NCBI GenBank assembly: GCA_000004695.1
Contig: CM000154.2
Coordinates: 480,001 to 544,000, forward strand
Reading direction: 5' to 3'
Length of the DNA stretch: 64,000 nt
DNA from: Dictyostelium discoideum
Lineage: Eukaryota
This document shows, in pieces, positions 1 to 43,099 of this stretch. The position numbers were made by a program, and so were the translations under genes. Below the pieces are notes generated by a model. It was not told where the DNA came from. It saw only the letters and a list, made by a program, of their open reading frames with translations, and did not search any database. Position 1 is the first letter of the stretch; each line of letters begins with the position of its first letter.

Positions 1-76
1 TTCATCGTATGTATTATTATTTAAATTTAAAATTTAATTTATCATAATAAATAACTAACATATAAATTTTAATTTT

Positions 77-120
<44 letters not shown>

Positions 121-121
121 G

Positions 122-509
122 TATTGTTCTTAATGCATTTATGGCAACATGTGGTATTTTTATATCATTTACATTATTCTCATTATTAACTAATAAGAGA
201 TTATATATTTTCATTGGTAGTAGTTTAGCATCATTATCAATTGGTATCTTTGTATTGGCTCTTACTAGACTATTTGGAGGATACAGCGAACCATTGGATC
301 AACTTTTCATTTTGGCAATTTTAGCAAGCTCTGTTTTGTTCATCATTTTTGATACACAAATAATGGTCCACAGAATAGAAAATTTAGGTGAAAAAGATGT
401 CTTATTCCATGCCTTTATTCTCTTTTATGACTTTGTTGATCTCTTTAGAGTCATTTTAAAGATTTTAGCAAAAAAAGAGAATAAAAACAATAATAAATCA
501 AGAAGATAA
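122..509 (+). CDS. 3'-terminal exon of a TMBIM/Bax-inhibitor-1-like multi-pass membrane protein; the gene is partial and its 5' exons lie upstream of the window
   Basis: The ORF at 141..509 encodes hydrophobic helices with the C-terminal TMBIM-like pattern ...FIIFDTQ(I)MVHR...D.V.HA..LF.DFV.LF..IL. The same frame stays open back to a (T)n-AATAG acceptor at about 120/121 with no plausible ATG, so this is the last exon of a gene that starts before position 1. Confidence 0.45.
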
Positions 510-570
510 AATAAAATAAAATAAAAGTTATTTTTAATTTGTATAAATATCATTTAAAAAAATCAAAAAA

Positions 571-609
<39 letters not shown>

Positions 610-1491
610 CTCCCATATTTGGTATTGGTTTTTTTTTTAAAAAAATAAAAAAAATAAAAATGAAAATAAAAAAATATTAAAAAAGAAAATAAAAAAAAAA
701 CAAAACAGTAACTTTAATAAATAAAATTAACTTTGAGGCCAAGGTTAAGTTTTAAAAATTCATTTAATTTCCAAAATTATTAACTTATAAAAAAGTTAAT
801 AAGAAAAAAAAAAAAAAAAAACAATTTTTAATTTTTTTTTTTTTTTTCCACAATAAAATTTTTATAAAAAGGGAACTAACCGTAAAAATTAAGGGCCCAA
901 AAAAGGGACCCCAACAACAACCGGTTTTTTTTTTTTTTTTCCAAATTTTTTTTTTTTTTTTTCCAAATTTTTTTTTTTTTTTTTTTTTTCAAAAAATTTT
1001 TTTTAAATTTAAATTAAAAATTTAAATAAAAAAATTTTTTTAAGGGAATTAAAATTTCAAAATAAGGGAAAAACCCTTTTTTTCATTTTTAAAGTAAATA
1101 ATTAATTTTTTTTAAAAAATTTTATTTTAATTTAAATTTATCCTAATATCAACTTTTTTTTTTTTTTTTTTTTTTTTGGGGTTAAAGAAAATAGCAATAA
1201 TTATAATAAAATATCAATATCAATAATATCAAAATTATAATAAAAGCAATCAAAATCAATAATATCTTTTTTTTATTTTTTTATTTTTTTTAATTTTTTA
1301 ATTTATATTATTTTTTTTCCACCCAATCAAACCCCCACCTTTTTTTATTTTTTTAATAATTTTTTTTAAATTTCATTATTTTTTTTTATTTTTTATTTTT
1401 TTTTGTGGAAATTTAGAAATTGAATTTAGTTGTATATCATTTCGATAACATACCAAATAATAATAATAATAATAATAATAATATAATAGTA

Positions 1492-1525
<34 letters not shown>

Positions 1526-1765
1526 TAAATAAATAAATAAAGTAAACATTCTTTCCATACAAATTTTTCTATTTTTATATTATCATATTATTATTTATTT
1601 ATTATTTTATTTTTACCATTTGTATATGTATGTAATTCAACCACCAATTTTTTTTTTTTTTGGTTTATTTTAATTTTTTTTATTTTTTTCTTTTTTATTT
1701 TTTTTTTTTTTAATTTAAATTTTCTATTTCAAATTGCAACCAATTATAGAGAATTTCAAAATTTT

Positions 1766-1800
<35 letters not shown>

Positions 1801-1896
1801 AATAAAAAAAATTTTGTATACACAATATTAACACTAACATAAATTTTATTATTAGTTTTATAAATTTGAAATAATATTGAAAAAAAAAAAAAATAA

Positions 1897-1938
<42 letters not shown>

Positions 1939-2034
1939 ATACGTTGTAAATCAAATTCTTTAATAATACTAGTAATAATAAATAAAAATAATAATAAATA
2001 AAAATAATAATAAATAAAAATAAGAATAATAGTT

Positions 2035-2065
<31 letters not shown>

Positions 2066-2073
2066 GATATAAA

Positions 2074-2657
2074 ATGAAAGCATTAATTTTAGTTGGTGGA
2101 TTTGGTACACGTTTAAGACCATTAACATTAAGTAAACCAAAACCAATTGTAGAGTTTGCTAATAAAGCGATGATTTTACATCAAATTGAAGCACTTTGCA
2201 AGATTGGTGTAAATGAAGTTGTATTGGCAGTAAATTATAGACCACAATTAATGTCACAATATTTAGAACCATATGAAAAGAAATTAGGAATCAAAATATC
2301 ATATTCACATGAAACCGTACCATTAGGTACTGCAGGACCATTGGCATTGGCAAGAGATTTATTAAATGACGGCGAACCATTCTTTGTATTAAACTCTGAT
2401 ATCATTTGTGATTTCCCATTTGCAGATCTCTTGGCTTTCCATAAATCTCATGGTGGTGAAGGTACAATCATGGTAACCAAAGTTGAAGAACCTTCAAAAT
2501 ATGGTGTCGTTGTTTATAAAGAAGAAAATGGTCAAATCTTAAAATTCGTTGAAAAACCTCAAGTCTACGTTGGTAATAAAATTAATGCTGGTGTTTATAT
2601 TTTTAATCCAACAATTTTAGATAGAATTCAAGTAAGTTTTTATTATTTATTTATTTG

Positions 2658-2704
<47 letters not shown>

Positions 2705-3315
2705 GTTTAAATAATTAATTTTTTATTTTTTTTTTTTATTTTTTATTTTATTTTATTTTTTTTTTTTTAATAATTATTTTTATAAATTAAAAGCCAAAAC
2801 CAACATCAATTGAAAAAGAGATTTTCCCAGCAATGGCAGCAGATAGTCAATTATATTGTATGCAATTGGAAGGATTTTGGATGGATGTTGGTCAACCAAA
2901 AGACTTTTTATCAGGTATGGGATTATATTTAAATTCATTAAAGTCAAAACAACCAGAACTCTTAGCTACTGGCAATGGTATTATTGGACCAGTTTTAATT
3001 GATCCATCATCTGTCATTGAACCAGGTTGTTTAATTGGCCCAAACGTAACAATTGGTCCAAATTGTGTTATTCAAGAAGGTACTCGTTTAGTTAATACAA
3101 CAGTTTTAGAGGGTACTACAATTGGTAAAAACTCTTGGATCAAATCTACTATCATTGGTTGGAACTCTTCAATTGGTAAATGGGTTAGAATGGAAAATAC
3201 CTCTGTTCTCGGTGAAGATGTTCATGTTTCTGATGAACTTTACATTAATGGTGGTAAAATTTTACCACATAAATCAATTACTTCTTCAATACCTGAACCT
3301 GAAATTATTATGTAA
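2074..3315 (+). CDS. gmppB: Mannose-1-phosphate guanylyltransferase beta (GDP-mannose pyrophosphorylase B); 2 exons at 2074..2631 and 2794..3315
   Basis: The translation [18 protein letters not shown]...[10 protein letters not shown]...[28 protein letters not shown] | [39 protein letters not shown]...[13 protein letters not shown] is colinear with human GMPPB end to end. The intron runs 2632..2793, with donor GTAAGT, an AT-rich body and an AAAAG acceptor, and both splice sites are phase 0. The stop is the TAA at 3313-3315. Confidence 0.9.
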
Positions 3316-3354
3316 ATCAATCAATCAATAAATCAATAAATCAATCAATCAATC

Positions 3355-3385
<31 letters not shown>

Positions 3386-3415
3386 TATAAAAATATAAAA
3401 AATATAAAAAAAGAT

Positions 3416-3460
<45 letters not shown>

Positions 3461-3724
3461 AGATCATTTTGTTTTTTTTTTTTTTATAAATCTCCAATTC
3501 CCATTTCTTCTTTTTTCCAAAAATAGATTCAGTAGTAAAAATATAGTATAATAATAATAATTTAAAATAATGTTTTTTTTTTTAATAAAATTTTAGTATC
3601 CATTTTTTTTTTTTGTAAAAATCATTACATCACCTATTTTATTTTATTTTTTTTTTCATTTTTTTTTTTTCTCTGAATTTCAAAAAATAATATTTGGGTG
3701 TCAATTAAAAAAAAAAATCATAGT

Positions 3725-3757
<33 letters not shown>

Positions 3758-3886
3758 CATAATTTCATTTATTTTTTTTTTTTTTATTTTTTTATTCAAT
3801 TTCTTTATTTTATTTTATTTTATTTTTTTTTATTAATATCCATTTTATTTATTTTTTAAATATAATAATAATAATAATAATAATTG

Positions 3887-6632
3887 ATGATGGCATCACC
3901 ATCATCTAGGTTATTAAAATTTATTACAAATGGAAGTAAATTACATTCAGCAAAAAATAATAATATGATTAAAAATAAGAATATAATATCACCAACAATA
4001 ACAAAATTATTTTCAACATCAAAAATTTCAAATGAAATTGGTAATATTAGAAATTTTAATAATAAAATATCAACAAATTTAATCAATTCAAATATAAATA
4101 CAAAACCATTTTTTGAAATACCAAAATTATTTGAAAAGAAATATTATTCATATATACCACCAACATGGGAAGAAAAAGATAAGGAAAAACAATTCAATTC
4201 CATAACATCCACTAGGGAAGAGGGAGGAGATAACGAAGAATCCAATAGAATGGGTAATGGTAGTATAAAGGATGCAATCGTTTGGGTCAACCATTTATAT
4301 CCAATCAAAGTGAGTAGATTAGATTTCAGATCATTATTCTTTCATATACCGATTACAAAGAAATTGAATTCACTATTTCCAAATGATGTAAAGATAATAT
4401 CAATTGAAAAGCGTATTAAAGAGGGTGGTGCTTATATACATTTTCAATATGATTCATCGAATCCAGAATATAAATCAATCGAAATGGTAATGTCAAAACT
4501 TAAATCAATATTTGCTCAAGAGAAAAAACATTTTCATTTCGCTTCAAGACCAGCAAAATGTAAATTGGTATATGGTAGACCTTTTGTCGAGGATATAGAT
4601 TATCGATTCCCTTCAACAACTTTGAAAATCACTTTCAAAGGTTCAGAAATGTCTCCAGATGATTTATTTCGTTTAATGAGACCCTATGGTCATATCAAAG
4701 ATATTCATTACTCTTCACCAATACCTTCAAAAGATGGTCCAAGACAAGCTACAATAACTTTTAAACGTATGGAAGGTGCAATTGCAACTAGAAATTGTTT
4801 ACATAATAAATATTTCCCTGAATTTAATACATCATTATATATGGATTATGAACAATTAATGGTAATTATATATATATATATATAAATATAAATTAATATA
4901 TTTTTAAAAATATATTTTTATTAATAATTTATTATTTATTATTTATTATTATTATTATTATTATTAGCGTATTAATAAATTAAAAGAACAATTTTCAAAA
5001 CATCCAAAAATTATGATACCACTATTAGGTATTTTAGCAACATTATTAACATTATTATTATTTAATCCATTAAGAGAATATTTTATAAATAAGAAATTAT
5101 CATCACCATGTTATTTTGGTGAACAAGAGGAAGATGATTGGCAAGAAAGATCAGAACAAAAGGTATTACAAACTCATTTTAATTTTCCACCAAATTCAAT
5201 CGTGATGATATCAGCACCTAAAGGATCTGGTAAATCTTCATTGATCGATAAAGTTCTAGAGAATAGAATCAATACATTATTGATCGATTGTAATCAAGAG
5301 GTTAATAACAACGATGAAGAGTTTATTGAATCATTTAGTAAAGATATTGGATTTTCACCATCCTATAGTTTATATTCATCATTTGGTAGTGTTATCGATG
5401 CAATTATACCAACTGGTAAAGGTGCATTTCATTCCACAACAAACTATCAAATGCAAACCATTTTAAAACTATTGGATGAAGTGTTGGCAAAGAAAGCAAA
5501 ACAATTCCCAGTGGACCCTCATCAACCTTATGAATATCCATTGATTGTAATAGATGGTTTCTTTGGTATGATTCAAGCTATGGAATCAAAGGAAAAAGCA
5601 AATATCATCATGGATTCAGTCATTCAATGGGCCATCACTAGCACTCAAAGGGGTCATGCTCATGTGGTATTCTTATCTTCAGATTCATTCGCTGGTGATA
5701 TCATAAAGAAATATTTGGATAATAGAGGTGGTGGTCAAATTTCAACCATTCAATTGGGTGATGTTCAACCATCAATGGCAATCAATTACATAAAGAAAAG
5801 AATTGGACCAAATACACCAATCACTCAACACGATATGGAATTGGTAGTCGATAATTTAGGTGGCCGTTATTATGATCTAAATGTATTGTCTCAACGTATG
5901 ATTGCCGGTGATAGTGTTGAACGTGCCCTCTCCAATATGATCTCAAAGGCAGTCAGTGAAATTCGTGCCGAAGGTTTTGGTTTATCAAAACGTAATGATG
6001 ATTCAAAAATAGGTGGTACTAAATTAAAATGGAGTCGTCCACAACTTTGGGAAACTATTAAAAAAATAGCTGAAAATGATTTCGTTAGTTATGATGATCT
6101 TTTATTCAACGTTTTCTTGGGTGATGAATCCTCTTTAAATAATTTAATCAGTAGTAATCTATTACGTTTTCAAAATGTTGATAATGAAAGAAAAGTAACC
6201 GCTTATTCTCCCCTATATTGTTCAGCTTTCAAACAAATGGTAAACGATTTGGAATTCAATGTTGGTATGGATGTTTTAGTACAAAAAGCAAGAATCGAAG
6301 AAGAGTTATCAAAATTATCAAAAGTTGAAGATGAATTATTAAAAATTAAAAATTTAACTTCAAAAAGTTGGTTCGAACCTTTATCAATTAAAAAACGTCG
6401 TATCCTCTTGGAAGATAAATTAAAAGATCATGTAGCTAAAATTGAACATCGTGAAAATATCCTAAAAAAACATTCATTATTTCAAAAATTCTTACGTGAA
6501 GAACAAATGATTCAAATGGAATTAATTAAAAAACAAAGGGAACAATCAAAATTTGAAAGACAACAACAACAATTATTACAACAACAACAATTACAACAAC
6601 AACAACAACAACAACAACAAGGGTCAATTTAA
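3887..6632 (+). CDS. YME2/RNA12-like mitochondrial inner-membrane protein (N-terminal presequence, RRM-like domain, one TM helix, P-loop NTPase domain); 2 exons at 3887..4861 and 4968..6632
   Basis: Track ORF 3884 begins at a TTG, and the first ATG is at 3887. Exon 1 ends ...MDYEQLM|GTAATT in phase 0. The intron is 4862..4967 and its ATTAG acceptor at 4966/67 restores the frame into RINKLKEQFSKHPKIMIPLLGILATLLTLLLF (TM helix). Downstream lie a Walker A motif (ISAPKGSGKSSLI) and a Walker B-like motif (PLIVIDGF), and there is a C-terminal poly-Q. RRM, TM and P-loop ATPase in this order is the architecture of yeast Yme2p. Confidence 0.6.
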
Positions 6633-6670
6633 ATTAAATAAATTTTTTATTTTATTTTTTTTATTTTACT

Positions 6671-7014
6671 TTATTGGTTTAAAATTGTTATTGATATTTG
6701 TGTTTGAACATTTAATTGTTTTAATAATTCAATATGAGTATTTAAATAATTTGGATTTATTCTTTTGCATGTTTTTGAATAGATTTGAATTATTGTTGAT
6801 ATTCTATCAACAAATTTCTTATTATCAAAATTAAAGTTATTTATCATTGTAATTATATTTATAAAGAATTCAGGATTTAAAGTATTTGAAATGTTTTTAA
6901 TGATTAAATTTGAGAAATCATCATTTTTGCATTCAGAAATTTGATAAATTGCATCAATTAATACTGAATTTAATTTCATAATATATGGTTCAACCAATTC
7001 ATTCTTTTCACCAC

Positions 7015-7090
<76 letters not shown>

Positions 7091-8155
7091 ATTAATATAG
7101 TTTGAAAATATACTAATTGTAATTATTTCTTTTAATAAATTAATATGGTTTAATGATTTTGACTGTTTTTCATTGAATTTAAATAATAGTTGTGGTGTTT
7201 GACGTAACCAATAGTTTGATAAAAGTGATAATGTTCTTGGGATTACTGTGAATTCTATATAGTTATTATCTCTTTTATTACTATCGTTGATATAGGAATT
7301 GGTTTTATTAAATGGACTTAAATAATGTGATATTATTATTGAGGTTAATAATGATGAAAAATCAAATGAGTTTGATGGTAAATTCTCAAAATTATTTGAA
7401 GATTCATTCAAAATTAAATGATCATTTATTAATATATCTAAAAGTTTAATTGATATATAAAAAATATCAACTTTTACTTGTTTTTCATTTTCTTTTTTTA
7501 TTTCCATTTCTATTTCTATTTCTCTTTCTGTTACTATTTCTATTTCTGTTTCTATTTTTGATTCTGATTCTGATTCTGATTCTGATTTTGATTCTATTTC
7601 TGATTCTGTTTCTGTTTTTATATTATTATTATTATTATTATTTATATTATTTATATTATTTATTATTTGATTTAGTAATTCTGTTATTGCTGTTGTTGGT
7701 TGATTGGCAAATTCTATTATCCAATCATAAGTTAATTGTAATATATTATACAGTCCTAAACTAATTGAGAGTGATAATATTGAACCTAGAAATTCAATGA
7801 TATTCTTTAAATTTTTTTTTTTTTATAAAAAATTAGTTTGTTTTTCTTAATTAAACATGATTAAGTTTTTTTTTTTTTTATTATATATTACTTACATTTA
7901 CAATAGTTGATGATATGTTTTCAATTTTTATTAAAGAAAGTAGTGAATTAAATAATTGATTTTTGTTCCCATTTTTATTGAAATACTTTGAAAAGAATAA
8001 AATTGATGATAATCTATCTGATGGACCAAGATGATCATTGATTGATACTATATAAATAATTTCTATAAAATCTATTGAATTTTATTAGTAATTAATACAT
8101 TATCAATATTAATAATAATAATCCAAATAATAATAATCCAAATAATAATAATCCA

Positions 8156-8254
<99 letters not shown>

Positions 8255-8632
8255 TAATTATATACAATACATTCAAATGGTGTTTCATCTTTATAATTTT
8301 CATATAGAATATTATATATTGATATAATGAAATAAAAATGATTATTGTAATTGTTATTAGTTGTTATGTATGATTTTAGAATATTAAAAAAATTATCATT
8401 ATTTTCTTTTTTTTTATTATAAAATTTGAGTATATTATCTTTTAAATTTTTTTTTTGTTTTTGAAAATCTTTGAAAATTGAATTTAAATCATCAAAGTCA
8501 CAATTATTATTTTCATCTACACTTGGTGATAATGTTGAAAATGATAATAATGATGATAATGGCTTTGGTTGAATATCCAACATCATCATCTCTTCACTAG
8601 AAAGAATTTCACCACTTTCTTGTTCTTCATTT

Positions 8633-8637
<5 letters not shown>
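6671..8637 (-). CDS. Hypothetical low-complexity protein (poly-Asn, ESES/EIE repeats) with at least 3 exons; boundaries approximate (exon A about 8637..8262, exon B about 8043..7896, exon C about 7804..6671)
   Basis: Minus-strand ORFs at 8254..8637 (MENEEQ...) and 6671..7507 are joined by an open in-frame segment whose donor is GTAAGT (plus-strand ACTTAC at 7890-7895) and whose acceptor is TTTAAAG at 7805/7806. The intervening (AAT)n tract at 8111..8252 is intronic. Unspliced reading hits stops, so splicing is required. No recognisable domain was found. Confidence 0.45.
8111..8252. repeat. (AAT)n microsatellite with interspersed CCAAAT, located in an intron of the 6671..8637 gene
   Basis: The tract is visible directly in the sequence, and the track ORF 8109..8303 (poly-Tyr) is an artefact of it. 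Confidence 0.9.
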
Positions 8638-8664
<27 letters not shown>

Positions 8665-8755
8665 CTTTTTCTTTTTCTTTTTTTTTTTTTTAATTGGAAC
8701 CGGTTTTTATTTTTTTTATTTTCAAAAGTTGTAAATTATTTTTTTTTGAAATTAA

Positions 8756-8787
<32 letters not shown>

Positions 8788-8859
8788 TTTATTTTTTTTT
8801 AATATTGAAAAAATATTTGGGGTTGAAATTTTCAAATTTTTTAATATGGATTTTATTTT

Positions 8860-8896
<37 letters not shown>

Positions 8897-8902
8897 CCAA
8901 AA

Positions 8903-9027
8903 CAATGATTTAATTTTATTTATTTTTAATATGGATTTAGTATATAAAAATAGAACACTCAAAAATACACAAAATGACATAAAATATAAAAAAAAAAAAA
9001 TCTGAGTCACGATAACATTCATTTTTT
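8903..9027 (+). mobile_element. Copy a of dispersed AT-rich repeat family 1 (MITE-like, about 150-250 bp)
   Basis: AATGATTTAATTTTATTTATTTTTAATATGGATTTAGTATATAAAAATAGAACACTCAAAAATACACAAAATGACATAAAATAT(A)n...GATAACATTCATT. Over about 95 bp it is more than 90% identical to copy b at 52307-52425, and it is homologous to copies c and d in reverse orientation. Confidence 0.55.
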
Positions 9028-9289
9028 TATATATTTTCATTCTTTTTTTTTTTTTTTACATTATCAACAAAACAAATAAATTTACATATAACATATACTA
9101 TATTTTAATATTAATGCATTAATTATAGAAATAATTTTATATTTTAATAATAGGATTTATATTTATTTATATAAATCCTCTTTCATTGACTAACGTGCCA
9201 AAGAGTATATATTTAGTTCTTTTTTTTTTTTTTTTTTTTTTTATTTACCCGTCAAAAGATACAAACTTTTTTTTGGGTGAAACTGGTAT

Positions 9290-9712
9290 ACATATTGGCC
9301 ATTCATCATTGTCGGAAGAAGAACTCTGCTTTTCTTATTTATTTCGTTCAACTTCAAAATCTTATGTAGGTGATTCAGTTTTAGATTTCTTTGTATCTGA
9401 TTTCCTTTATACCGCTTTTCCAGATCATCGTTCTCTTTTAGTTAGAATTTCCAATCTATCATCAATTAGTAGAAAACTTAATTTACCTCCAACTCTATCA
9501 AAAGGAATTCATGATACATTACCACTAATAAAACTGGGTGATTATTTGGAATCTTTTATTGGGTGTTGATGCCACTCAAACATTTGAAAATACAAAATCT
9601 TTGGTTCATAAGTATTTAGATTTAAGAACTGATAATCCAATATTGGGATTCCTTTGTTTAGCCCACTGGTCTATTAATTTAAGATCAGAGGCTAAAGATG
9701 ATTTTTAATTCT
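9290..9712 (+). pseudogene. RNase III-domain (ribonuclease III-like) coding remnant interrupted by a +1 frameshift; either a pseudogene or a sequence error
   Basis: The track ORF translation ...SYVGDSVLDFFVSDFLYTAFPDHRSLLVRISNLSSISRKLNLPPTLSKGIHDTLPLIKLGDYLESFIG matches the RNase III signature (E. coli rnc: [24 protein letters not shown]....ESILADTVEALIGG). The frame stops at GGGTGTTGA near 9552-9566. Removing one G gives FIGVDATQTFENTKSLVHKYLDLRTDNPILGF...* through to 9708, which continues the RNase III fold. There is no convincing ATG start; the track start is a TTG that follows a poly-T. Confidence 0.4.
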
Positions 9713-9911
9713 CGGAAAGCAGCGAACCAGGTAAACAAAAAAAAAATAAATAAATAAATTAAAAACTTTTTTTTTTTTTTTTAATTTTGTAAATGTTTTA
9801 TGTATTTTTATAAAATGTTATTAAATAGATAAAAAAAAAAAAAAAAGGTAAAGTAACAATTGACTTAAAAAAGTGACTTTTTTTTTTTTTTTTTTTTTTT
9901 GAATTTTTAAA

Positions 9912-12994
<3,083 letters not shown>

Positions 12995-13416
12995 TTGTTT
13001 TTGTGGCCTTCTTTTGCTGATAATAAAATATTCATGAATTAGCAGATATTCGTGTTGAATTTGTAAAAGATAAAACCAAAGGAAGAAAAAAAAAAAAAAA
13101 ACCCAAAAAAAAAGAAAAAGGGGGAATATCGCTTTAAAAAATTTTTTGGGTTTTTTTTTTTTTTTTTTCCTGAAAAAAAAAAAAAAAAATTTAAAATTTA
13201 AAAATTAAAGAAATATATTTAGGGGCAATAAACAAAAAATTTTTTTTTTTTTTTTTTTTTTACCTTTTTTTTTTTTTTTTTTATTTCTAAAAAAAAAAAA
13301 AAAAAAAAAGCTGATTATAAAATTTTTTTATTTTTTATTTATTATTTTATTTGTTATTTTATTATCTTTTTTTTGTTATTTTTATTATCTTTTCTAAAAT
13401 AACCACACTTGTATTT

Positions 13417-13454
<38 letters not shown>

Positions 13455-13828
13455 AAAAAAAAAAAAAAAAAAAATTTTTTTTTTTTTTTTTAATTTTTTT
13501 TTCTTTTTTTTCTTTTTTTTTATTTTTCCATATCCCCAATTAAACTAAATGGAATTCCATCCAAAAGATTGATTAAAAAATGGATTAATTTGTGAATTCT
13601 AATAAAAAGAAAAAAAAAAAAAGAAAAAAAAAACCAGAATTGTTTTTTTTTATTTTTTTTATTTTGTTTATAAAAACTAAATATCTATCTTTTTTATTGA
13701 GGTACATTGTAATTTTTTTGATCAATAAAAAAAGGGTAGAGAATATAACAATACTTTCATGATAGAATCTAACAAATTGTTATATAATCTAATTGAATAA
13801 TGTATTAATTTAAGTAGAGTTTTTTATC

Positions 13829-13860
<32 letters not shown>

Positions 13861-14297
13861 TTTTTTTATTTTATTTTTTTTATGATTTCAAAATTTTTTT
13901 TTTTTTTATTTTTTATTTTTTTTTTTTTATTTTTTTTTTAATTTTAAAAAAACGAAAAAATTTGAATCATTTTTTTTTGTCATTACATATTTATTTTATT
14001 TCCAAAAGATTAAATTTTTTTTTTTTTTTTTTAATCTTCAAAGGAGTGTGTTAAATAAGAAATAAAAAAAATAAATAAAAAAAATTAAAAAATAAAAAAA
14101 TAAATAAATAAAATCAAAAATTCCACTTATAAAACCAACTTTATTAGAAACTATAAAAATATAAAATTTTATACAACTTGGAATTGTATTATTATTTAAA
14201 TATTGGTGTAGTTAAAAGAAGAAAAAAAAAAAAAAAAATATAAAAAAAAGTACAAAATAAAAATACAAAATAAAAAACATATATAAATATAAATTAA

Positions 14298-14849
14298 ATG
14301 GAGGCTCCATGTCCAGATAAAATTTGGCAAGATGCAGGTGGTGCATTTGCAATTGGTTATGTATTGATGGGTGTAGTTAATATAGGTTTAGGTTTCAAAC
14401 GTTCACCACCAAATAAAAGAGTTCTTTATACATTTGCATTGCTTAGAAAGAAGTCACCAAAGTTTGGTGGTAATTTTGCAATTTGGGGTTCATTATTCTC
14501 TGGATTCGATTGTACATTATCATACATTAGAAAGACAGAGGATACGGTTAATCCAATTGCAGCAGGTGCATTAACTGGTGGTATCTTGGCAGCAAGATCA
14601 GGTTGGAAACATTCAGTTCAAGCAGCCGCCTTTGGTGGTATTTTCATTGGTATCATCGAAGCTTTCCAACATATGATGCAAAAGAGAATGCAAGCTCAAC
14701 AAGAAGAAATGACTCAACAACATTTAGAAGAAAGAAAAAGATATGAAGAAGAAAGAAAACAAAGAGAAGGTGAAAGAAAAAAATTAAATGAAAATGGAAA
14801 ATCTAAAAAAAATAAACAACAACAAAATGGTGAAAATGATTTAGATTAA
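14298..14849 (+). CDS. timm17: Mitochondrial import inner membrane translocase subunit Tim17 (Tim17/22/23 family), single exon
   Basis: The translation MEAPCPDKIWQDAGGAFAIGYVLMGVVNIGLGFKRSPP....KSPKFGGNFAIWGSLFSGFDC...NPIAAGALTGGILAARSGWK...AAAFGGIFIGIIE aligns with human TIMM17A (EPCPWRIVDDCGGAFTMG...LGGSFAVWGGLFS...ALTGAILAAR). The protein has four GxxxG-rich TM helices and a charged C-terminal tail. Confidence 0.85.
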   Translation: MEAPCPDKIWQDAGGAFAIGYVLMGVVNIGLGFKRSPPNKRVLYTFALLRKKSPKFGGNFAIWGSLFSGFDCTLSYIRKTEDTVNPIAAGALTGGILAARSGWKHSVQAAAFGGIFIGIIEAFQHMMQKRMQAQQEEMTQQHLEERKRYEEERKQREGERKKLNENGKSKKNKQQQNGENDLD

Positions 14850-14967
14850 AACAAATAAAAATAAAAATAAATAAAAAAAATAAAAAAAAAAGAATTAAAT
14901 ATAAACTCCTATTTGTATTATTATTATTATTATTATTATTATTTTTTTATAATTTATTTTTTAAAAT

Positions 14968-16392
14968 TCATAAATCAGATAAAGCAGTAACACCTGGTAA
15001 TTCTTTACCTTCTAATAATTCTAATGAAGCACCACCACCAGTTGAGACATGACTAACTTTATCTTCAGTGTTGTATTTGGCAGCACAAGTGGCGGTATCA
15101 CCACCACCAATGATAGTGATAGCACCATTGGTTGTGGCATTGACAACATCATCCATGGCAGCTTTTGTACCGGCTTCGAAATTGCTCTTTTCAAATACAC
15201 CCATAGGACCATTCCAAACGATGGTTTTTGCTCTTGAGATGGTATCTCTGTTTTCTTTGATAGTCTCTGGACCACAATCTAAACCCATCCAACCTTCTGG
15301 GATACCTTGATCTTGAGTGACGGTTTTGATGTTGGCATCATTATCAAATTTATCGGCAATGACATAATCGACTGGGAAATGTAATTTTACATTATTTTTA
15401 GCGGCTTTGGCAATGATATCTTTGGTGATTTGTTCGGCTGTTTTCTCAAACAATGATGAACCAATCTCTTTGTTATCAATGAATTTCTTGAAAGTGAAGG
15501 CCATACCACCACCAATGATCATTTCATCGACTTTATACAAAAGGTTTTCAATGAGTTTAATTTTATCACTAACCTTTGCACCGCCAAGAATTGCCAAGAA
15601 TGGTTTTGATGGTGACTCTAAAGCCTTGGCAAAGTATTCCAATTCTTTTTTCATGAGGAAACCAGCGGCTTTTTGTGGGAGATTAATACCAACCATTGAA
15701 CTATGTGCTCTATGAGCAGTACCAAAGGCATCGTTCACATAGACATCACCGAGCTTGGTGAGTGATTCACGGAATTCTTTAACTTTCTCTGGGTTGGCTT
15801 TGACCTTTTTACCCTCTGCATCAACACCTGAACCTTCCTCTTCAATGTGGAAACGGAGATTCTCCAATAAAATAACGGTACCTTCCTCTGGATTTGCACA
15901 TTCTTTTTCAACTTGTTCACCAACACAATCTGATAAGAATTTAATTGGTCTTTTTAATTGATCTTCCAATACTTTAACCACTGGTTTCAAACTATACTCT
16001 GGTTTAACCAAACCATCTGGACGACCTAAATGTGACATCAATACAATTGATTTAGCACCATTCTTTAAACAATATTCTAATGTTGGAATTGATGCATCAA
16101 TTCTTTGAGTACTTGTAATATTATTATTTTTATCTAATGGTACATTATAATCAACTCTTTTTTTTTTTTTTAAAAAAAAATAATAAATAAATAAATAAAA
16201 AAAAATATAAAGTTTAAAAAAAAAAATAAAAAAAAAATAAAAAAAATTAATATTATTATAGGAAAAAAAAAAAAAAAATAAAAATAAAAATAATAATAAC
16301 AATTAAATAGATATTTACCTAATTAAAACTCTTTTACCTTTTACATCTACCTTGTCAAGACTTAATTTATTACCAATTTTATTTGAAGACAT
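14968..16392 (-). CDS. pgkA: Phosphoglycerate kinase; 2 exons on the minus strand at 16392..16319 and 16156..14968
   Basis: Exon 1 reads ATG TCT TCA AAT AAA ATT GGT AAT AAA TTA AGT CTT GAC AAG GTA GAT GTA AAA GGT AAA AGA GTT TTA ATT AG|GTAAAT ([25 protein letters not shown]) in phase 2. An AT-rich 162-nt intron ends at (A)nAG|AGTTGATTATAATGTACCA, continuing ..[25 protein letters not shown]...GRPDG...KFSLKPV...[20 protein letters not shown], a full-length PGK of about 420 aa. The track ORF N-terminus ([12 protein letters not shown]...) is translated intron. Confidence 0.9.
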
Positions 16393-16472
16393 TTTGATTA
16401 ATGATTTGTTAAAAATTAAAAAAAAATAAAAAAATAAAAAAAAAAAATAAAAATAATGTTCAATTTTGTTTG

Positions 16473-16506
<34 letters not shown>

Positions 16507-16992
16507 TTTTAATTTTTTTTTTTTTTTTTTTTGAAATTAAATATTAGGGCAACTATTTTTCATTGAAATTCCTAAATGTGGGATTTTAGAAAAAAAAAAA
16601 AAAAATAATTGGGAAAAATCATTTTATCTTTTGATTAAAAACTAATAGGGTTTTTTTTTTTTTTTTTTTGTTCCCATATTTGGTATAATTTTTATTGTTT
16701 TGTTGATCTAATTTTTTAGTTTTGTTGACTAAAATTTCTAAATTTACTTTAAAGTTAAATAAAAAAATTTTTAGAAGAAAGATCTTCGAAAATTTTTAAT
16801 AAAAACTTTTAATTTTTTTTAATTTTTTTTTTTTTTAATTTTTTTTAATTTTTCAATTTTTAAATTTTTTTTTTTTTTTTTTTTTAATTTCAAAATTAAT
16901 TTATAATTTTCACACACATTTTTTTTTTTTCTTATTTATTTTTTAAAAAAAAAAAAAAAACACTTTTATAAATAATTATATATACATAATAA

Positions 16993-17681
16993 ATGGCTGA
17001 CGTTGAAGCATCATCATCAGCATCAAAAACACCAAAAAAGAAGTTTGAAGTTAAAAGATGGAATGCTGTAGCTTTATGGATTTGGGGTAAATTTATTTTT
17101 TTACTTTTTTCTCAAAATAAAAAAAAAAAATAAAAATAAACAAAACAATCAACAATAATTAATTAAAAATCAAGAATGGATGCCAAAGAAATAAAAAAAT
17201 TAAATAATAATAATAATATTATCATATAAATAACTTTTTTTTAAAATGTTAAAGAAAAAAAAGATAATCTAATATTTATTTTCTTTTTATAGATATTGTT
17301 GTAGATAATTGTGCAATTTGTAGAAATCATATTATGGATTTATGTATCGAATGTCAAGCTAATCAAGCATCAAATACAAGTGAAGAATGCACTGTTGCAT
17401 GGGGTATTTGTAATGTAGGGTTTTTTTTTTTTTTTCTTCTCTTTATCTCTTTTAAAGAGAATATGCACATTTCATTTTACTCACACAATCTTATTTTTCT
17501 ATAGCATGCCTTCCATTTCCATTGTATTTCACGTTGGTTGAAATCAAGACAAGTTTGCCCTCTTGGTATGTAAACTTTATTATTTTTCATTCTTTATCAT
17601 CATTATCAAAAAATAATTCTAACTTTTTTATACCAATATACAGATAATAGAGATTGGGAATTCCAAAAATACGGAAGATAA
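16993..17681 (+). CDS. rbx1: RING-box protein 1 (Rbx1/Roc1, cullin-RING ligase RING-H2 subunit); 4 exons at 16993..17086, 17293..17414, 17505..17565 and 17644..17681
   Basis: The spliced product [31 protein letters not shown]|[41 protein letters not shown]|[20 protein letters not shown]|[12 protein letters not shown] is colinear with human RBX1 ([41 protein letters not shown]...[41 protein letters not shown]). The donors are GTAAAT, GTAGGG and GTATGT, the acceptors are (T)nATAG, CTATAG and ATACAG, and the phases are consistent. The ORF track misses the gene entirely. Confidence 0.85.
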
Positions 17682-17866
17682 TAAAAAAAAAAAAAAATAA
17701 TAATAATAATAATAATAAAAAATCAACAAATCAAATTTGTAACATACATTTCCTGATAAACTTTTTTTTTTTTTTTTATTTTTTTTATTTTTTTTATTTT
17801 TTTTATATTACAAAAAGGAAAGTTTGGGTTCAATTATATTTCCCAAAAATAGAAATATTATAAATC

Positions 17867-17908
<42 letters not shown>

Positions 17909-18220
17909 AACAAGGTTGTTTTATAAATTATAAATTGTTTAAAAATTTATTTCAAACAACGTTTCATAAAAATTCATTGATAAGTTTTTTTTTATTTTTA
18001 TTATTTTTTTAAAACAAAATAATAAAAAAAAATTAAAAAAATTAAGAAACCTTTTTTTTTTTTTTTTTTTGTTTGAAATAATAATAATAAAATTAAAATT
18101 GGTAACGAGTCAAAAAATAAATATAGGGATTATTTGAAAAAACCCGTCTTCTTTAATATTTAAAAATAAAAATAAAAATTATTTTATAAGAAACTGACTG
18201 ATCCCAATTTGATTATTTTG

Positions 18221-18254
<34 letters not shown>

Positions 18255-18606
18255 AAAAAAAAAAAAGTGTTTTGTTTTATAATAATAAAAATGGATGGGT
18301 CATTTGATTTTCTTTTAAAATTTTTTTATTTTTTTTTTTTTTGAATTATTTTTATTTTTTTTTTTTATTTTTTTTTTTAAAAAAAAAAATTTATTTTTAT
18401 TTTTCTTTTTTTATTTATTATTTATTTTTTATTTTTTTTTTATGTTGTAGTTAATAATTTATTTATTTATTTATTTCTCTATTTATTTGTATTTATTTTT
18501 TTAAAAAAAATTTAAAAAATTTTTTAATGTATAATAATAATTAAAAAAAAAAAAAAAAAAAATCTAAACCCAATTAAAAAAAAAAAAAAAAATATTCAAA
18601 TTTTGG

Positions 18607-18641
<35 letters not shown>

Positions 18642-18739
18642 ACTTTTTTATTTTTTTTATATTTTCTCTTTTTAATAATTAATTTTATTTTAATATAAAA
18701 CTCATAATTTTATATATAAAATAAAAAAATAAAATAAAA

Positions 18740-21372
18740 ATGAACAAAGAAGAATATTCAGATATTTCAGACTCTGAATCAGAGGAAGTTCATGAAACAA
18801 ACAATCATAATGAACACGAACACGAAGAAGAAGATGACACACCAGAAATTGTTGTACCAGAACGTAAATTCTTAAAAGAAGATGAAGATTATTCAGTTCC
18901 ATTCCCAGTCATGCGTGAATGTTTGGTCCTTTTGTTGCAATCAAGAAGAATCTTAAGAGATATGATGTATTATAGATTCAAAATGGATAGATTCCTTTCT
19001 GGTAATCTCTCTGTATTTGAAATTCAAAATCTATTACATTCACAAAGAGAAGATAAAGAATCTGATTGGATTGCTGGTATGTTTTAATAATTATAATATT
19101 TATTATTATTATTATTTTTATTTTCTTTTTTTTTTTTTTTTTTTTTTAATTTTTTTTTTTTTTTTTTTTTTTCATTTCATAATTCTATTTATAATTTTAT
19201 TAATAATTTTTTTTTTTTTATAAATTTTTTTTTTTTATAGAAATTCAAGAATTAAAACGTAATTTAGTTAGTGAAGTTAGAAGAAATCATACATTAGAAA
19301 GAGATCTTAATCGTCTTGATAAGAGAATTGCACTTTTAATTAAAAATCGTGGTAATATTCAAGATGTATTAGCAGACAAAGCTGGTCTTAAAGCACCAAA
19401 ACATAAGGGAGATCAAAAGAAACCAGAGCTTATTAATGATCCAAAGAAATTAGAAGCCTATCAAAATCTCTTTTACTTACTTCAAACAGAACCAAAATAT
19501 TTGGCAGGTTTGGTTTATTTGATTCAACCAGAGCAAATGGAGTCCTTCTTGGGTACCGTCATCTTGACATTGTTTGGTGATGCATTCACACCAAGAGAAG
19601 AGTTTCTCTTACTCTCTCTCTATAGACTTTCAATTCAAAAGGAGATGGCAAACATTGCAACCGTTGGTGATTTCCTCAAGGCTGACACTGTCGTTCCAAA
19701 GATGATTATCACCTACAACAAACGTAAACAAGGTACCGACTATTTGAAGGCTGTCATTGGTCCAATCTTGTCTAATGTCATCAAACAAGAGTTGAATCTC
19801 GAGTTGAAACCAAATTTAGTCTATGCTGCCATCATCTCTGAACAAGAGATTAGAACCGGTGAAAAGAGTACACTCGATAGAAATGTCTCACATGAGAAAG
19901 CTTTAGAAGTTCCAGAGGTTACCAAAACTATCAAGGCTCGTGTCGATCAATTGATCTCCATTTGTGAACAATTCCTCGATGGTATCATTAGTTCATTGAA
20001 TCGTCTTCCATATGGTATTCGTTGGATTTGTAAACAAATCTATCAAATCGCTGAAAAGAATTTCACCAAATCAACTCAAGATGAAATTCTCAAGGTCATT
20101 GGTTACTTTATTTACTATCGTTTCATTCAAGTTGCCATGGTCTCTCCAGAGGAATATGATTTGGTCGGTCGTGAAATTCATCCAACCGCCCGTAAGAATT
20201 TAATCAATGTATCAAAAGTATTACAAGCACTTTTCAATTTTGCTCAATTTGGTTCCTCTGAAAAACACTTTATTCCTTTGAATGGTTGGATCACCTCTCA
20301 TATGGGTGACATTAAAAATTATCTCCAAGAGATCATTGAAGTCGGTGAACCAGAAGATTATCTCCAAGTTGATAAATATATGGAACTCACTCAAAAAACT
20401 AAACCAGTCATTATCATCTCCCTTCCAGAGATTTGTAATACTCATCAACTCATCTCAAAGAATTTAGATTCACTCGTTGCCAAAGGTGAAAAGGATGATC
20501 CAATGAGAATCATTATGAAGGAACTCGATGAATTTGGTCCACCACCAGATATTGCTGCCGATGATGATCGTGAAGTTCAATTGACTCTTTCCAATAAATT
20601 CCAAAAAACCATTGAAGAGGAATTATCACCAGGTGAAAGTCTTCTCTCTCAAACCAAAGAGATGGTCATCTCTTTACTTCGTGCTCTTCCAACTCTTCCA
20701 GAACAAAAAGACCAATCTGATGAACCACCCAATCTTGTCGATGTTTTAAACAAGGCTCGTCAAGCTGATCCATCTTTGGAGCCAGAAATCAAAAAGATCC
20801 TTGATAACCTCAAAAAACTTGAAGAATATAATCTCACCACCTCTGCCGATAATTATTCCTCTTTCCTCAAGGCAGTCGCACTCGAAGTAGTTAATCGTGC
20901 TGAAATTCGTGAACAACAAAAGAAGGAGAAACAAAGATTAACCACCTCTTTGAATAATCTTCGTAAACATCAAAAATATCTCAACGAACAAATCGCTCAA
21001 TACAATCAATACCTCCAAGATTGTCGTCTCAAACATTATCAAAACAAGAGCAAAAAGAAGAAGAAGGGAGATGGTGCCAAAGTTGGTCCTTTCAAATTCA
21101 GTTTCAGCGAACTTCACAAGAAAGGTGTCATCGTCGACTCTGAAGTTCCTCAAATCACCAGAAAGAAGATTAAATTTGTCATTAGCTCTGATACCGTTGG
21201 TGTGTTTGATGTCTCTGCTAAAATGGCTGGTATCGATGTTCAAACTATGCGTTTGGAACTTGATGACCTTTTAGAACTCAATTCAATTGGCACCACAACT
21301 TTAGAATTAGATCAAATCACTTTAGATGTTAATATGACCATACATTTATTAAACAAACTTTTCTTATATTAG
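18740..21372 (+). CDS. rgaA: IQGAP-related RasGAP-domain protein (DGAP1/GAPA family); 2 exons at 18740..19076 and 19241..21372, about 822 aa
   Basis: Exon 1 (acidic N-terminus) ends ..DWIAG in phase 1 at donor GTATGT (19077). The (T)nATAG acceptor at 19239/40 continues EIQELKRNLVSEVRR...YLAGLVYLIQPEQMESFLGTVILTLFGDAFTPREEFLLLSLY...YGIRWICKQIYQ... (a RasGAP-related domain, FLR/YxxR-type motifs) and a RasGAP C-terminal region. The predicted length of 822 aa equals what I recall for DGAP1, but the symbol is uncertain and gapA is the alternative. Track ORF 19501 starts at a TTG. Confidence 0.8.
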
Positions 21373-21927: not shown

Positions 21928-24900
21928 ATGAGACAAATAAATAATATCTATCTCTTTTTTTTATTTTCAATTATTACTTTTAATGGTAAATACTTAAAAA
22001 GAGTTTTATAATTTTTTTCTAATTTTTTTTTTACACAAATAAATAAATCTATCTATTTTTTTATTTTTCCAAGAATTCTTTTTAACCAAAATTAAAAAAT
22101 TTAAAATAAAATTTGACAACAAATAGAAATAAACTCAAGAGAGCCTTGCATTCAGAATTATACGTTTGAATATGGCAGAAATTATAAAGGAGATTATGGA
22201 ATGTTATATGATCTAAATTGTTTAGATCCAAATTTCGAAAGGGTTACTGTTAGTGGTCCGCAAAAAATTAATAATAGCTATACAAATAATTTCAAAGATA
22301 AAAATATTCCATCGTTTTACTTTATTAATCCTGGATATACAATTTATAATTTCCATCCAACTCCGTTATCAAATTCTACCGAATTTTCAATTAATTCCTC
22401 ATTCCAAAATTCATCTCTGATTATTAAATCATTTTTTTTAAAAAATGGTAATGTATTGTATTCGATTTTTTATTTTTATTGATCATTTTTTAATATTAGC
22501 TTTTATTAGCTTCAGATATATCAGATATTAAGCAAATTATTATGGTAGATTCAAAATATTGTTCCTCATTAAAATATGATCAATGTGTACTATTTATTGA
22601 GTTCAATGGCATATCTGAGCCAACGCTATTATTTGACGATAATCTTTATAGACCATTTTTAATTAATGGTAATCCAAACAAAGGGAAATATTACATAGAG
22701 TTATCAAGAATTTCATCATTACCCAAAGAGTCATACAGTATTTATCTCTTTTCAAATAGTCTCAAATATGAACCCATTCATACATTTAAAGGACTGAATT
22801 ACACAGGACAAATGGTGGCAGCAAATCCCCCATATGTATATTACTATTCTAAACCAATTACATATATTTTTATTGAAATTGAAACCCTACCGGGAAATTT
22901 AGGAAGTCTTATTGTTCGTTATCAAAATTTTGAAAATTTTGATTTGGTTATTCCACTACCATTCTCATTTACTTTGAATGATGGCATTGCTAGTTTTTCA
23001 ATAGCTTATCCAGTTTCCCAATATTTTGTTCCCCCAACACAATTGTCAATTTCATTCACAAATGTTAACGACTTTTTTGGAAAGATAAATATGGGAGGAT
23101 CAAAATTAAAAGATTATGAAAGCCCAACCAAATTAAATGTAGATTTTTTAAAACCATTCGAGTATTCTGATAAAATTGCCATCAGAGTGAGGGCTTCGGA
23201 CAAAGGTTCAGGAGTTCAATATATTATATTCACTTTTAATTCCACTTATTCTTTGCAACCAATTAACTCAATTAAGTTATCAAATATGGATTTAGTAAAA
23301 GGTGATTGTTTTAATGGTATTTATCAAGTAATTGTTCCAAAATATAAAATTCGAAAGTATTATGAAATAGAAATAATTGATCATGCCAATAATTCAAATA
23401 ATAGTAAAGATTCTACCCCATTTTTATTTTTAAGTCCAATGGATTTCCAATCTATCTTTTTTGCCAGTCAAAGTAGTGATGTATCTGAAAATTCTGTTAA
23501 AAATACAATGTTTATAGAACTAAAAAATAAATCGATAGATTGGTTGGCTTTCGAATTTATTCCAATATTTGGAGTTAAGCATGAGCCATCATTCATTAGC
23601 AAGTGGAATTCATCAAGTACAATATATGAAATTCATTTCACGATTCCTGCTCGTTTGCCACCAGGACCAATACAATATATTTTGAATCCTGTTGACATAG
23701 ATAGTTCTACGTTTTATACATATCTTGGCCCTTCTTCTGAATTAAACATTATTTGTGAAAAAACTGATACAATTGGACCATTGGTGACTTCACTATTGGC
23801 ATATAACCCTGAAACACTATCGTATGGTAAATCTGTTGAAGTTGGGTTTGAAATACATTTTAAAGACGATTTAAATGGTATTGCTGATATTAATTTTACT
23901 ATAATCTCAGACAAAGATAAAAATGGTTTTGATTTTAATTGTAAGCCACCAGAAATAAAAAATACTCATACATGTTCTCCAAGATGGAATGTAACCATAC
24001 CACAGACATTTTACATATCCCAAATGTCCACAATAGATAGCAAGGGTTATTCAACTGAATATCCTAATATTAATAAAGTAAACCCAATGATGGAAATTGT
24101 AGAAACTGATTATAATAAACTGATAGTTACAAGTAGTGGTGAAATGGACACAGATATCCCAACGTTGGTTCATTTCATTTCTAATATATCATATATAAAT
24201 AATCAATCAGATAGATCGATTTTAGTTAACTTTACTATTGAAGATACCAATAGTGGTGTTTCAATTAAATATCAACCAACAATTTATACAATCCCAGATA
24301 CTTTGAATATTCTTTCATTTCCATGCAAACACGAAGAGGGTTTGATCAACAACACCAAATACCGCCAGGTAAATTTTTACTGCGAGTTAATGTTACCATA
24401 TTTATATGGCTATCCAAACGGTTTCTTTTTCCAAATTCATGGTGTTTATGATAATCATTTTAATTCTGCAGGTTTTTCTTATGACAATAGCCCAAGATTT
24501 GGTTTTTTCATAAATGTTACAGTTGGTGATGATATACCATTCATTGAATCATTTAAAACTGATGAATCATATATAACCTTAAAAGGTTTTAAATTTGGAA
24601 TTTCACCTAGTGTAATATATAACTCCAACTTCACACAAGAACTATTAATATTTTCTCCTTCCCCTTTTTTAAATAACAGTTTTATTCAATTTAAACCAAA
24701 TTTAACCCAAAACATTATTGGAGAAACTATTTTGATCTACATTAATACCTCGGAAGGAAAATCCAACACTATTTCAATTGAATTGCCATGTAAAGGAGAG
24801 CCATTATGTGGTGGTCAGTCTCAAGGAATTTGCACCCTAATGGGGTGTAGATGTAAACCTGAATATACCGGGACTGATTGCTCATCAAATATTATTATTA

Positions 24901-32194: not shown

Positions 32195-32404
32195 ATGTTT
32201 GATTATTTTTTCGGTAGTAAAACAGAAAACAAAAAATTAAAAGTAAATCAGGTTTTAAAAAAATACAAAGATTTATATGCAATAACAATTGAAAATGTTT
32301 TTACAAAAGAAGAATGTGAAGAATTAATTAGATTATCAGAAGAAAAAGGATATGAACCTGCATTGGTAGTATGTAAAAAATTTAAAATTTTTTATTAAAT
32401 AAAA

Positions 32405-32446
<42 letters not shown>

Positions 32447-37252: not shown

Positions 37253-37754
37253 TTATTTATTTATAAATTTCCAAAATTTTTTAGTATTATTATTTGTAAT
37301 TGTAATGATTTTAATTTGTTGTAAAATTGAATGATGATCGAAAATTTCGAAATTAAAAGGTAGATTATTCCAATTCTTTATAATTATTAATTCCAAAGGT
37401 GGTAAAACATTTGAAGCAATTGGTTGTTTATATGATTTATCAAATGTTAAATATTTTAATGACTTTGGAAGTGAATCACTTTCTAAAATTTGGTCAAACT
37501 TTTCACCAAATTCAATATAACAAAGATTATTAGGTAACATATTCTTTGTTAATTTTTCATTATAATAATATCCAAATATTAATACTTTTAAATTTTTTGG
37601 AAAACTATTTGGTAATAATGGTTGATTAAATTTATGACTCATTATCAATGTTTCAATTGTTGAAGGTAGTTCATTTAAATTGATTGGTTCATTAAAATTT
37701 GGACTAAATGATAACTTTTTTAAATTACAAATAATGTTAACACCATTACCATAT

Positions 37755-37812
<58 letters not shown>

Positions 37813-43064: not shown

Positions 43065-43099
<35 letters not shown>

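Follow-up and report, generated by a model that had tools for sequence, protein, structure and literature searches.

What does a reading frame with an RNase III domain and no start codon represent in the genome of Dictyostelium discoideum? We asked this question of a locus in a 64-kb stretch of D. discoideum DNA (64,000 nucleotides; referred to here as the window), which is very A+T-rich (15-31% G+C) and carries poly-Asn/Gln coding tracts. A first-pass annotation had read an RNase III domain at this site, in a frame that ends early and continues in the +1 frame, and had attributed the break to an extra G in a GGG run. Three options were left by that reading: a decaying pseudogene of a Mini-III or mitoribosomal L44-like protein, a homopolymer sequencing error in a real small gene, or a gene whose upstream part is spliced in.

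Frame 0 at this locus is open from 9135 to a TGA at 9567-9569 and contains a TTG at 9186. Its translation reads ...YVGDSVLDFFVSDFLYTAFP...KLGDYLESFIGC, and the fuller product that ends at the same TGA is ...YVGDSVLDFFVSDFLYTAFPDHRSLLVRISNLSSISRKLNLPPTLSKGIHDTLPLIKLGDYLESFIGC. The RNase III reading of 9258-9566 halts at GGGTGTTGA and resumes in the +1 frame, in which the ORF at 9538-9708 reads DATQTFENTKSLVHKYLDLRTDNPILGF...DDF* and the continuation to 9708 is DATQTFENTKSLVHKYLDLRTDNPILGFLCLAHWSINLRSEAKDDF*. The TAA that closes this second frame at 9706-9708 is probably the original stop of the ancestral gene. When 9135-9566 was shuffled, the frame stayed open in only 5 of 200,000 trials, and the G+C content of the core of this feature (from here on, the relic) is 30.6%, compared to 12-15% in the flanks; the open frame is thus not explained by chance. 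The relic sits in a 1.27-kb interval between two minus-strand genes, the upstream one starting at ~8637 and the downstream one, an RS-rich ORF of 922 aa, ending at 9912.

The call of an RNase III domain was borne out by the Pfam profile PF00636 (Ribonuclease_3; gathering cut-off, 27 bits), which scored 29.0 bits (E of 2e-6) on frame 0 alone and 27.4 bits on the frameshift-corrected translation of the first-pass annotation. Sequence matches of the ORF in PDB were weak and fell on the signature regions of Drosha and bacterial RNase III. Frame 0 retains the second catalytic Asp/Glu pair (..GD..E..) as KLGDYLES, at ~9531-9554, and breaks four codons later. The signature (E/Q)RLE(F/Y)(L/V)GD is missing from the window, which reads KS-YVGD. 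The earlier description of a frame without a dsRBD, an in-frame ATG or an ERLE motif was correct on all three counts, and with its premature TGA and frame change the relic has no intact ORF with a start codon. The coordinates of the relic, its lesions and the genes around it are collected in Table 1.

Table 1. Positions of the relic, its deletion junctions and the neighboring genes in the window, with the colinear matches in the D. purpureum locus (L004)
Feature	Window positions	Strand	L004 positions	Basis
G+C-containing block upstream of the T tract, frame 0 LSLTNVPKSIY	9180..9216	+		conserved columns across lineages
23-T tract, 5' limit of detectable Dicer homology	9220..9242	+		sequence; profile alignment does not run upstream
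Relic coding sequence, linker and RNase IIIb up to ...KLGDYLESFIGC	9258..9566	+		tblastn, Dicer profile, PF00636
15-bp in-frame deletion junction, flanked by TAT/TAT direct repeats	9362..9363	+		alignment A1
8-bp deletion junction, TG microhomology	9566..9567	+		alignment A1
Relic coding sequence in the +1 frame: end of RNase IIIb (DATQTFENTKSLVHKYLDLRTDNPI), C-terminal tail, TAA	9568..9708	+		Dicer-profile gain
RS/RD- and poly-Asn-rich 922-aa ORF, tail-to-tail with the relic	9912..12680	-		ORF list, tblastx
Tim17 anchor	14298-14846	+		order and orientation as in L004 and L001-L003
Phosphoglycerate kinase (PGK) anchor	within 14971-16302	-		order and orientation as in L004 and L001-L003
Match, Dicer 3' end and relic	9363-9566		13019-13246	tblastx
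Match, 566-aa gene and 922-aa gene	9915-10373		13818-14318	tblastx
Match, second colinear one near the 922-aa gene	12741-12800		15309-15368	tblastx
Match, Tim17	14293-14706		17189-17860	tblastx
Match, PGK	14975-16400		18302-19640	tblastx
Match, Rbx1	16981-17105		23012-23145	tblastx

From which family does this domain come? A profile of the window ORF and P0002 was searched against 1.84 billion representative proteins. After three models from the locus itself, the best matches were Dicer-like proteins of dictyostelids (E of 3e-20 to 1e-11), among them those of Tieghemostelium lacteum (3e-20), D. purpureum (5e-20) and Polysphondylium violaceum (7e-18), with further Dicer-like matches in Cavenderia fasciculata, Heterostelium album, Acytostelium subglobosum and others. 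These large proteins have two RNase III stretches each, and in every case it was the C-terminal one that matched. By tblastn, residues 906-1018 of the D. purpureum protein (DICPUDRAFT_79950, XP_003289187.1; P0005) matched window 9252-9566 with an E of 2.8e-16. A profile of dictyostelid Dicer C-termini, which aligned from ORF residue 42 (window 9258), scored 69.0 bits on frame 0 alone and 80.7 bits once the +1 frame was joined to it. This rise indicates that the continuation is real homology, and it upholds the earlier claim that the frame ends early and is carried on to 9708.

Similarity to Dicers extends beyond the Pfam domain. It includes the Dicer linker before IIIb (IDHPSLLEEAF versus IGHSSLLEEAL) and a C-terminal ...LxLxxDNP motif common to the relic and the Dicers ('DLRTDNPILGF' versus 'HLYKDNPLFIL' in P0005). 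In a neighbor-joining tree of the IIIb domains available for comparison, which was built from ~130 residues without support values, the relic was sister to P0005, at 45% identity. Relative to every Dicer compared, all D. discoideum lineages lack 8 residues that correspond to QQEGFLTE and have 2 inserted ones. Best matches on IIIb and on the Dicer-specific flanks place the relic in the dictyostelid Dicer-like (Drn) family, and these similarities identify its parent as the "IIIb" domain, the C-terminal one of the two RNase III domains in a dictyostelid Dicer-like protein.

How much of the parent remains? The D. purpureum protein is 1059 aa long and carries a dsRBD at its N-terminus as well as two RNase III domains, of which IIIb is the closest to the relic and shares the linker and the C-terminal DNP motifs with it. 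In comparison, the window keeps only the equivalent of residues ~906-1059 (~906-1018 in the frame 0 part) and lacks the dsRBD, the middle region, RNase IIIa and the start codon. The relic also differs from it by a 15-bp and an 8-bp deletion, by the 8-residue deletion, which is older, and by the 2-residue insertion. Full-length Dicers used as tblastn queries gave nothing outside 9249-9624, IIIa-like sequence was found nowhere in the 64-kb window, and no other Dicer-like pieces were detected in it at E<5. On this comparison, only the last ~150 codons (RNase IIIb and the stop) survive in D. discoideum.

A side observation concerns the annotation of one of the relatives. In C. fasciculata (L005 7896-11809), a 'putative RNase III' of 576 aa (P0008) lies directly after a same-strand 336-aa model that contains a dsRBD, and annotation has probably divided a single Dicer-like gene into these two.

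Does the locus encode a protein today? Among 5.8 billion proteins searched, only three relatives at the same locus were found, all of them "hypothetical proteins" (ab initio models) from new D. discoideum assemblies, and the relic had no UniRef or reference-proteome entry. The three predictions are mutually inconsistent. P0001 (128 aa) comes from an assembly that hardly differs from the window, and it depends on a 10-nt micro-exon at 9206-9215 and an 80-nt 'intron' at 9538-9617, which consists of conserved Dicer coding sequence with the GDYLES catalytic motif. All three models appear to be predictor artefacts that splice around the frameshifts, and the "hypothetical protein" entries at this site in the new assemblies would be exposed as such. 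In the A+T-rich spacer that precedes the relic, a short motif, TTTAATATGGATTT, is found at two positions (8845-8860 and 8931-8945), and one of the two copies provides the ATG of the P0001 model.

We then asked whether the position of the relic bears on its origin. In D. purpureum, the genes downstream of the Dicer gene (L004 10001-13372, plus strand) are, in order, a 566-aa gene (-), Tim17 (+), PGK (-), two small genes and Rbx1 (+). In the window, the relic (+) is followed by the 922-aa gene (-), Tim17 (+), PGK (-) and Rbx1 (+), and the tblastx matches are colinear. The 922-aa ORF is the orthologue of the 566-aa gene next to the D. purpureum Dicer gene; conservation between the two is limited to its C-terminal ~160 residues and a short patch at the N-terminus, and a Pfam search with the conserved C-terminus gave no match. 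The upstream sides differ, with RanBP1, Mlh1, a 2OG-Fe(II) oxygenase and a 196-aa gene in D. purpureum versus RNA12 and a minus-strand gene in the window. Because synteny holds downstream and not upstream, the relic can be assigned as the positional orthologue of the Dicer 3' end, with the break inside the former gene. Among the loci compared, synteny was found only with D. purpureum; the C. fasciculata P0008 gene lies in an unrelated context.

Three further D. discoideum-labelled loci (L001, L002 and L003) share the surroundings of the ORF with the window on both sides: Bax-inhibitor, GDP-mannose pyrophosphorylase, RNA12 and a 505-553-aa minus-strand gene upstream, and a 922-978-aa minus-strand gene, Tim17, PGK, Rbx1 and an IQGAP-type RasGAP downstream. 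In an exact-protein look-up, the window Tim17 protein was matched only in the L002 assembly.

The homology begins at 9258 (D. purpureum residue ~906), and this 5' edge does not coincide with an exon boundary: the introns of the D. purpureum gene follow residues 36 and 417. An edge off the exon boundaries points to truncation at the DNA level. The T tract upstream of this edge varies in length among L001, L002 and L003. The block at 9180-9216 on its far side showed no significant similarity to Dicers with the dictyostelid Dicer C-terminus profile, and it may be further relic sequence or an unrelated element. We considered homology upstream of the T tract, where 'TNVPKSIY' faintly resembles 'SNVRLPLY' in P0005, and rejected it, as the profile alignment stops at 9258. 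A processed pseudogene was ruled out by the syntenic position.

If the relic is the end of a former gene, are its lesions the same in all D. discoideum lineages? We compared the window with L001, L002 and L003 in a four-way DNA alignment (A1). L002 comes from an independent assembly and is very close to the window; it is 100% identical over 9223-9830 and differs elsewhere in many homopolymers and clustered SNPs. L001 and L003 are ~85% identical to the window over the relic interval and ~4% diverged from it at synonymous sites of neighboring genes. The whole loci of these two (GCA_054859385.1 and GCA_054859355.1) differ from window 1-20000 by 10-15% in intergenic sequence, with many indels. This divergence is deep for one species, and the two may represent cryptic lineages.

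Alignment A1 revealed that the window and L002 lack 15 bp, TATCAACGTTTAGAG (= YQRLE), which are present in L001 and L003. With this deletion the RNase III signature QRLE(Y/F)(V/L)GD loses its first catalytic Glu, and all dictyostelid Dicers compared read YQRLEFLGD at this site; the loss of YQRLE explains why the glutamates had seemed to be missing. The signature reads QRLEYVGD in L001 and QCLEYVGD in L003. Relative to the same two loci, the window and L002 also lack 8 bp, TGTTTTGC, directly after GGGTGT, and this deletion causes both the frame change and the premature TGA. The break had been blamed on an extra G in the GGG run; the orthologous loci place the real lesion, the 8-bp deletion, between 9566 and 9567. 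Across this site the ancestral reading would have been ESFIGCCFADATQTFE, and the Dicers read (I/V)GC(L/I)xLD there. We also considered programmed +1 frameshifting and rejected it, since the 'slippery' site is a deletion junction specific to one lineage, and L001 and L003 do not have it.

Other lesions are found in the other lineages. L001 has private 3-bp and 2-bp deletions, and L003 has a private 1-bp deletion and a private deletion of ~20 bp. L001 and L003 have in common a 2-bp insertion near the C-terminus, where 'TDNPILGF' in the window matches 'KDNPLFIL' in the Dicer, which makes the window state the ancestral one at this site. No stop or frameshift common to all four lineages was found in alignment A1. 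When all indels were restored to the fullest state of each, an open frame of ~150 codons was obtained that keeps QRLEYVGD...GDYLES (QRLEYVGD...KKLGDYLESFIGCCFAD). This reconstruction scored 42.6 bits on PF00636, covering model positions 1-100 of 102, and 112 bits on the profile of Dicer C-termini.

Is the relic still under selection? Between the window and L001 or L003, the relic had a pS of 0.07-0.11, a pN of 0.03-0.046 and a pN/pS of 0.5-0.6, figures that rest on 16-21 changes. Nine neighboring coding ORFs had a pS of 0.03-0.05 and a pN of 0.002-0.026 (mostly <=0.02). The pN of the relic is about equal to the pS of its neighbors, which serves as the neutral benchmark, and its pN/pS is not significantly below 1. 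Divergence of the relic at the level of its neighbors' synonymous divergence indicates neutral decay. For a fragment without a start codon the frame is remarkably well preserved, which may reflect past or residual constraint. The absence of a stop or frameshift common to all lineages, with private ones in each, suggests that the frame was open in their last common ancestor. An open frame in that ancestor would in turn place the loss of constraint, presumably the truncation, shortly before the lineages split.

Several other explanations have to be weighed against these observations. Could the frame be intact and broken only by a sequencing or assembly error in the GGG run of a small RNase III gene? 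The genome is rich in homopolymers, and deletion of one G does restore a continuous reading. This explanation is extremely improbable, however, given that the independent assembly L002 has the identical sequence, that the difference from the ancestral state is 8 bp and not 1 bp, and that the frame has no start codon and has lost its catalytic signature to the 15-bp deletion as well. A Mini-III or mitoribosomal L44-type parent had been proposed on the basis of a single RNase III domain without a dsRBD, and the preserved part of the relic does resemble Mini-III and MRPL44 in its fold, its single domain and its lack of a dsRBD. Neither is the closest by sequence, however; the best non-self matches are the C-terminal RNase III domains of Dicer-like proteins, and the similarity runs into the Dicer-specific linker and the C-terminal KDNP motif. 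No Mini-III or RM44 family match (PF22935, RM44_endonuclase) was obtained, only PF00636 and a sub-threshold PF14622, and the site is syntenic with a Dicer gene. We therefore consider a pseudogene of a single-domain gene of this type highly unlikely. The relic would be single-domain by truncation, and the notion of an orphan gene of the Mini-III or L44-like kind is corrected. The suggestion that an upstream part is spliced in does not hold either: the next upstream gene is on the opposite strand, the rest of the 64 kb contains no other Dicer-like sequence, and each lineage has frameshifts of its own.

A different possibility is that the relic is a copy, a piece of D. discoideum drnA or drnB duplicated and inserted here. 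Two Dicer-like genes do exist elsewhere in the genome, drnA (DDB_G0273051) and drnB (DDB_G0268410) (PMC4894637). DrnA and DrnB were not among the matches listed in the protein searches, and the identity of the relic was set against other dictyostelid Dicers only. Random insertion would not, however, reproduce the exact position and orientation of the D. purpureum Dicer 3' end relative to four shared downstream genes. The relic has only 45% identity to its closest available relative, and its 8-residue deletion and 2-residue insertion occur in no Dicer compared, a combination that fits long independent evolution and not a recent copy; we judge a duplicated fragment to be quite unlikely. Only slightly more credible, and still unlikely, is a functional element, either a small non-catalytic RNase III-fold protein spliced around the lesions or a non-coding or antisense RNA. 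Genes are predicted here in three assemblies, an open frame runs through a core that stands out as a G+C island, and pN/pS is 0.5-0.6. Against this, the three models disagree, and P0001 depends on a micro-exon and on an 'intron' made of Dicer coding sequence; there is no in-frame ATG, and the frameshifts are different in every lineage. Total divergence equals the neutral benchmark, and no Rfam family scored above threshold over 8000-10500.

The relic is, very probably, a non-processed, 5'-truncated positional pseudogene, the last ~450 bp of a Dicer-like gene that occupied this chromosomal position in the common ancestor of D. discoideum and D. purpureum. Homology, synteny, the lesions with their polarity and the neutral rate were each observed directly here. 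A functional orthologue lies at the syntenic site in D. purpureum (L004), the disabling lesions in alignment A1 differ between lineages, and the substitution rate, from 16-21 changes, is indistinguishable from neutral. Of the three options left by the first-pass annotation, the decaying pseudogene was the right one, as judged by lineage-specific lesions, truncation and synteny with a Dicer gene. The relic gives no indication of present function and, as far as its sequence tells, would be an ordinary pseudogene. It resembles unitary or positional pseudogenes in having an orthologue at the same site in a relative, lineage-specific disabling indels and a neutral rate, and it differs from them in being also 5'-truncated at a synteny breakpoint, with one domain left.

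A possible course of events is as follows. A DNA-level rearrangement or deletion would have taken the 5' ~2.7 kb of the gene (dsRBD, middle region and RNase IIIa), with its breakpoint at or near the T tract 9220-9242, and the same event would have placed the unrelated minus-strand gene beside the fragment. The fragment, left without a start codon, would then have drifted neutrally. In the lineage of the window, slippage-type deletions may have removed 15 bp (the YQRLE signature) and 8 bp (changing the frame and creating the premature TGA), and the other D. discoideum lineages would have gained different frameshifts. We infer that constraint was lost shortly before the lineages split.

What does this mean for the history of Dicer in social amoebae? 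Exactly two homologues of Dicer, namely DrnA and DrnB, have been counted in D. discoideum, each carrying a dsRBD at the N-terminus and a pair of RNase III domains at the C-terminus (PMC4894637, PMC5056781), and a single ancestral dictyostelid Dicer is described as having duplicated within group 4 (PMC11014262). We found no mention in the literature of a third Dicer locus or a Dicer pseudogene in D. discoideum. DrnA and DrnB are members of the family to which the relic belongs, and their domain architecture is the one from which it derives; they are functional genes at other loci, and the relic is likened to them by family and architecture. The relic offers physical evidence for a further Dicer-like locus in this lineage, at a site where D. 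purpureum keeps a full-length gene, and it can serve as a marker with which to trace how Dicer genes were duplicated, moved and lost in social amoebae and to place the synteny breakpoint. It is possible, although we lean slightly against it, that a Dicer-like gene was intact here until a very recent ancestor of the D. discoideum complex, as a third group-4 paralogue beside drnA and drnB or as the original site from which one of these two was copied. If this were true, the published Dicer counts (two, from one group-4 duplication) would miss a gain-and-loss step, and the truncation at the synteny breakpoint would mark a point in the evolution of the amoebozoan RNAi machinery that can be dated.

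Several minor observations were made elsewhere in the window. Two overlapping sub-threshold C/D-box snoRNA-like Rfam matches fell at 10203-10309 (+), antisense in the 922-aa gene (snoU54, 22 bits versus a gathering score of 35; snR75, 20 bits versus 40), and are probably due to chance. A multi-exon homologue (52-73% by tblastx) of the D. purpureum 2OG-Fe(II) oxygenase gene lies at 32249-32979 (+), ~23 kb downstream of the relic; in D. purpureum, that gene lies two genes upstream of Dicer. Neither the 196-aa gene nor a Dicer 5' part was found beside the homologue at 32.2 kb. The position of the oxygenase hints at a local transposition or a rearrangement linked to the truncation. An FNIP-repeat protein gene (477 bits) is present at 37256-39856 (-), and an FNIP-repeat gene also occurs at the leftmost end of the D. 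purpureum Dicer locus. The FNIP-repeat family is very large in Dictyostelium, so this co-occurrence is probably a coincidence. Finally, two full-length ABC transporter genes lie in tandem at 40448-44008 (-) and 45234-48884 (-), with ABC_membrane and ABC_tran twice each. Each has a short exon-like ORF of ~160 aa upstream (44034-44516 and 48969-49436), and the pair looks like a tandem duplication.
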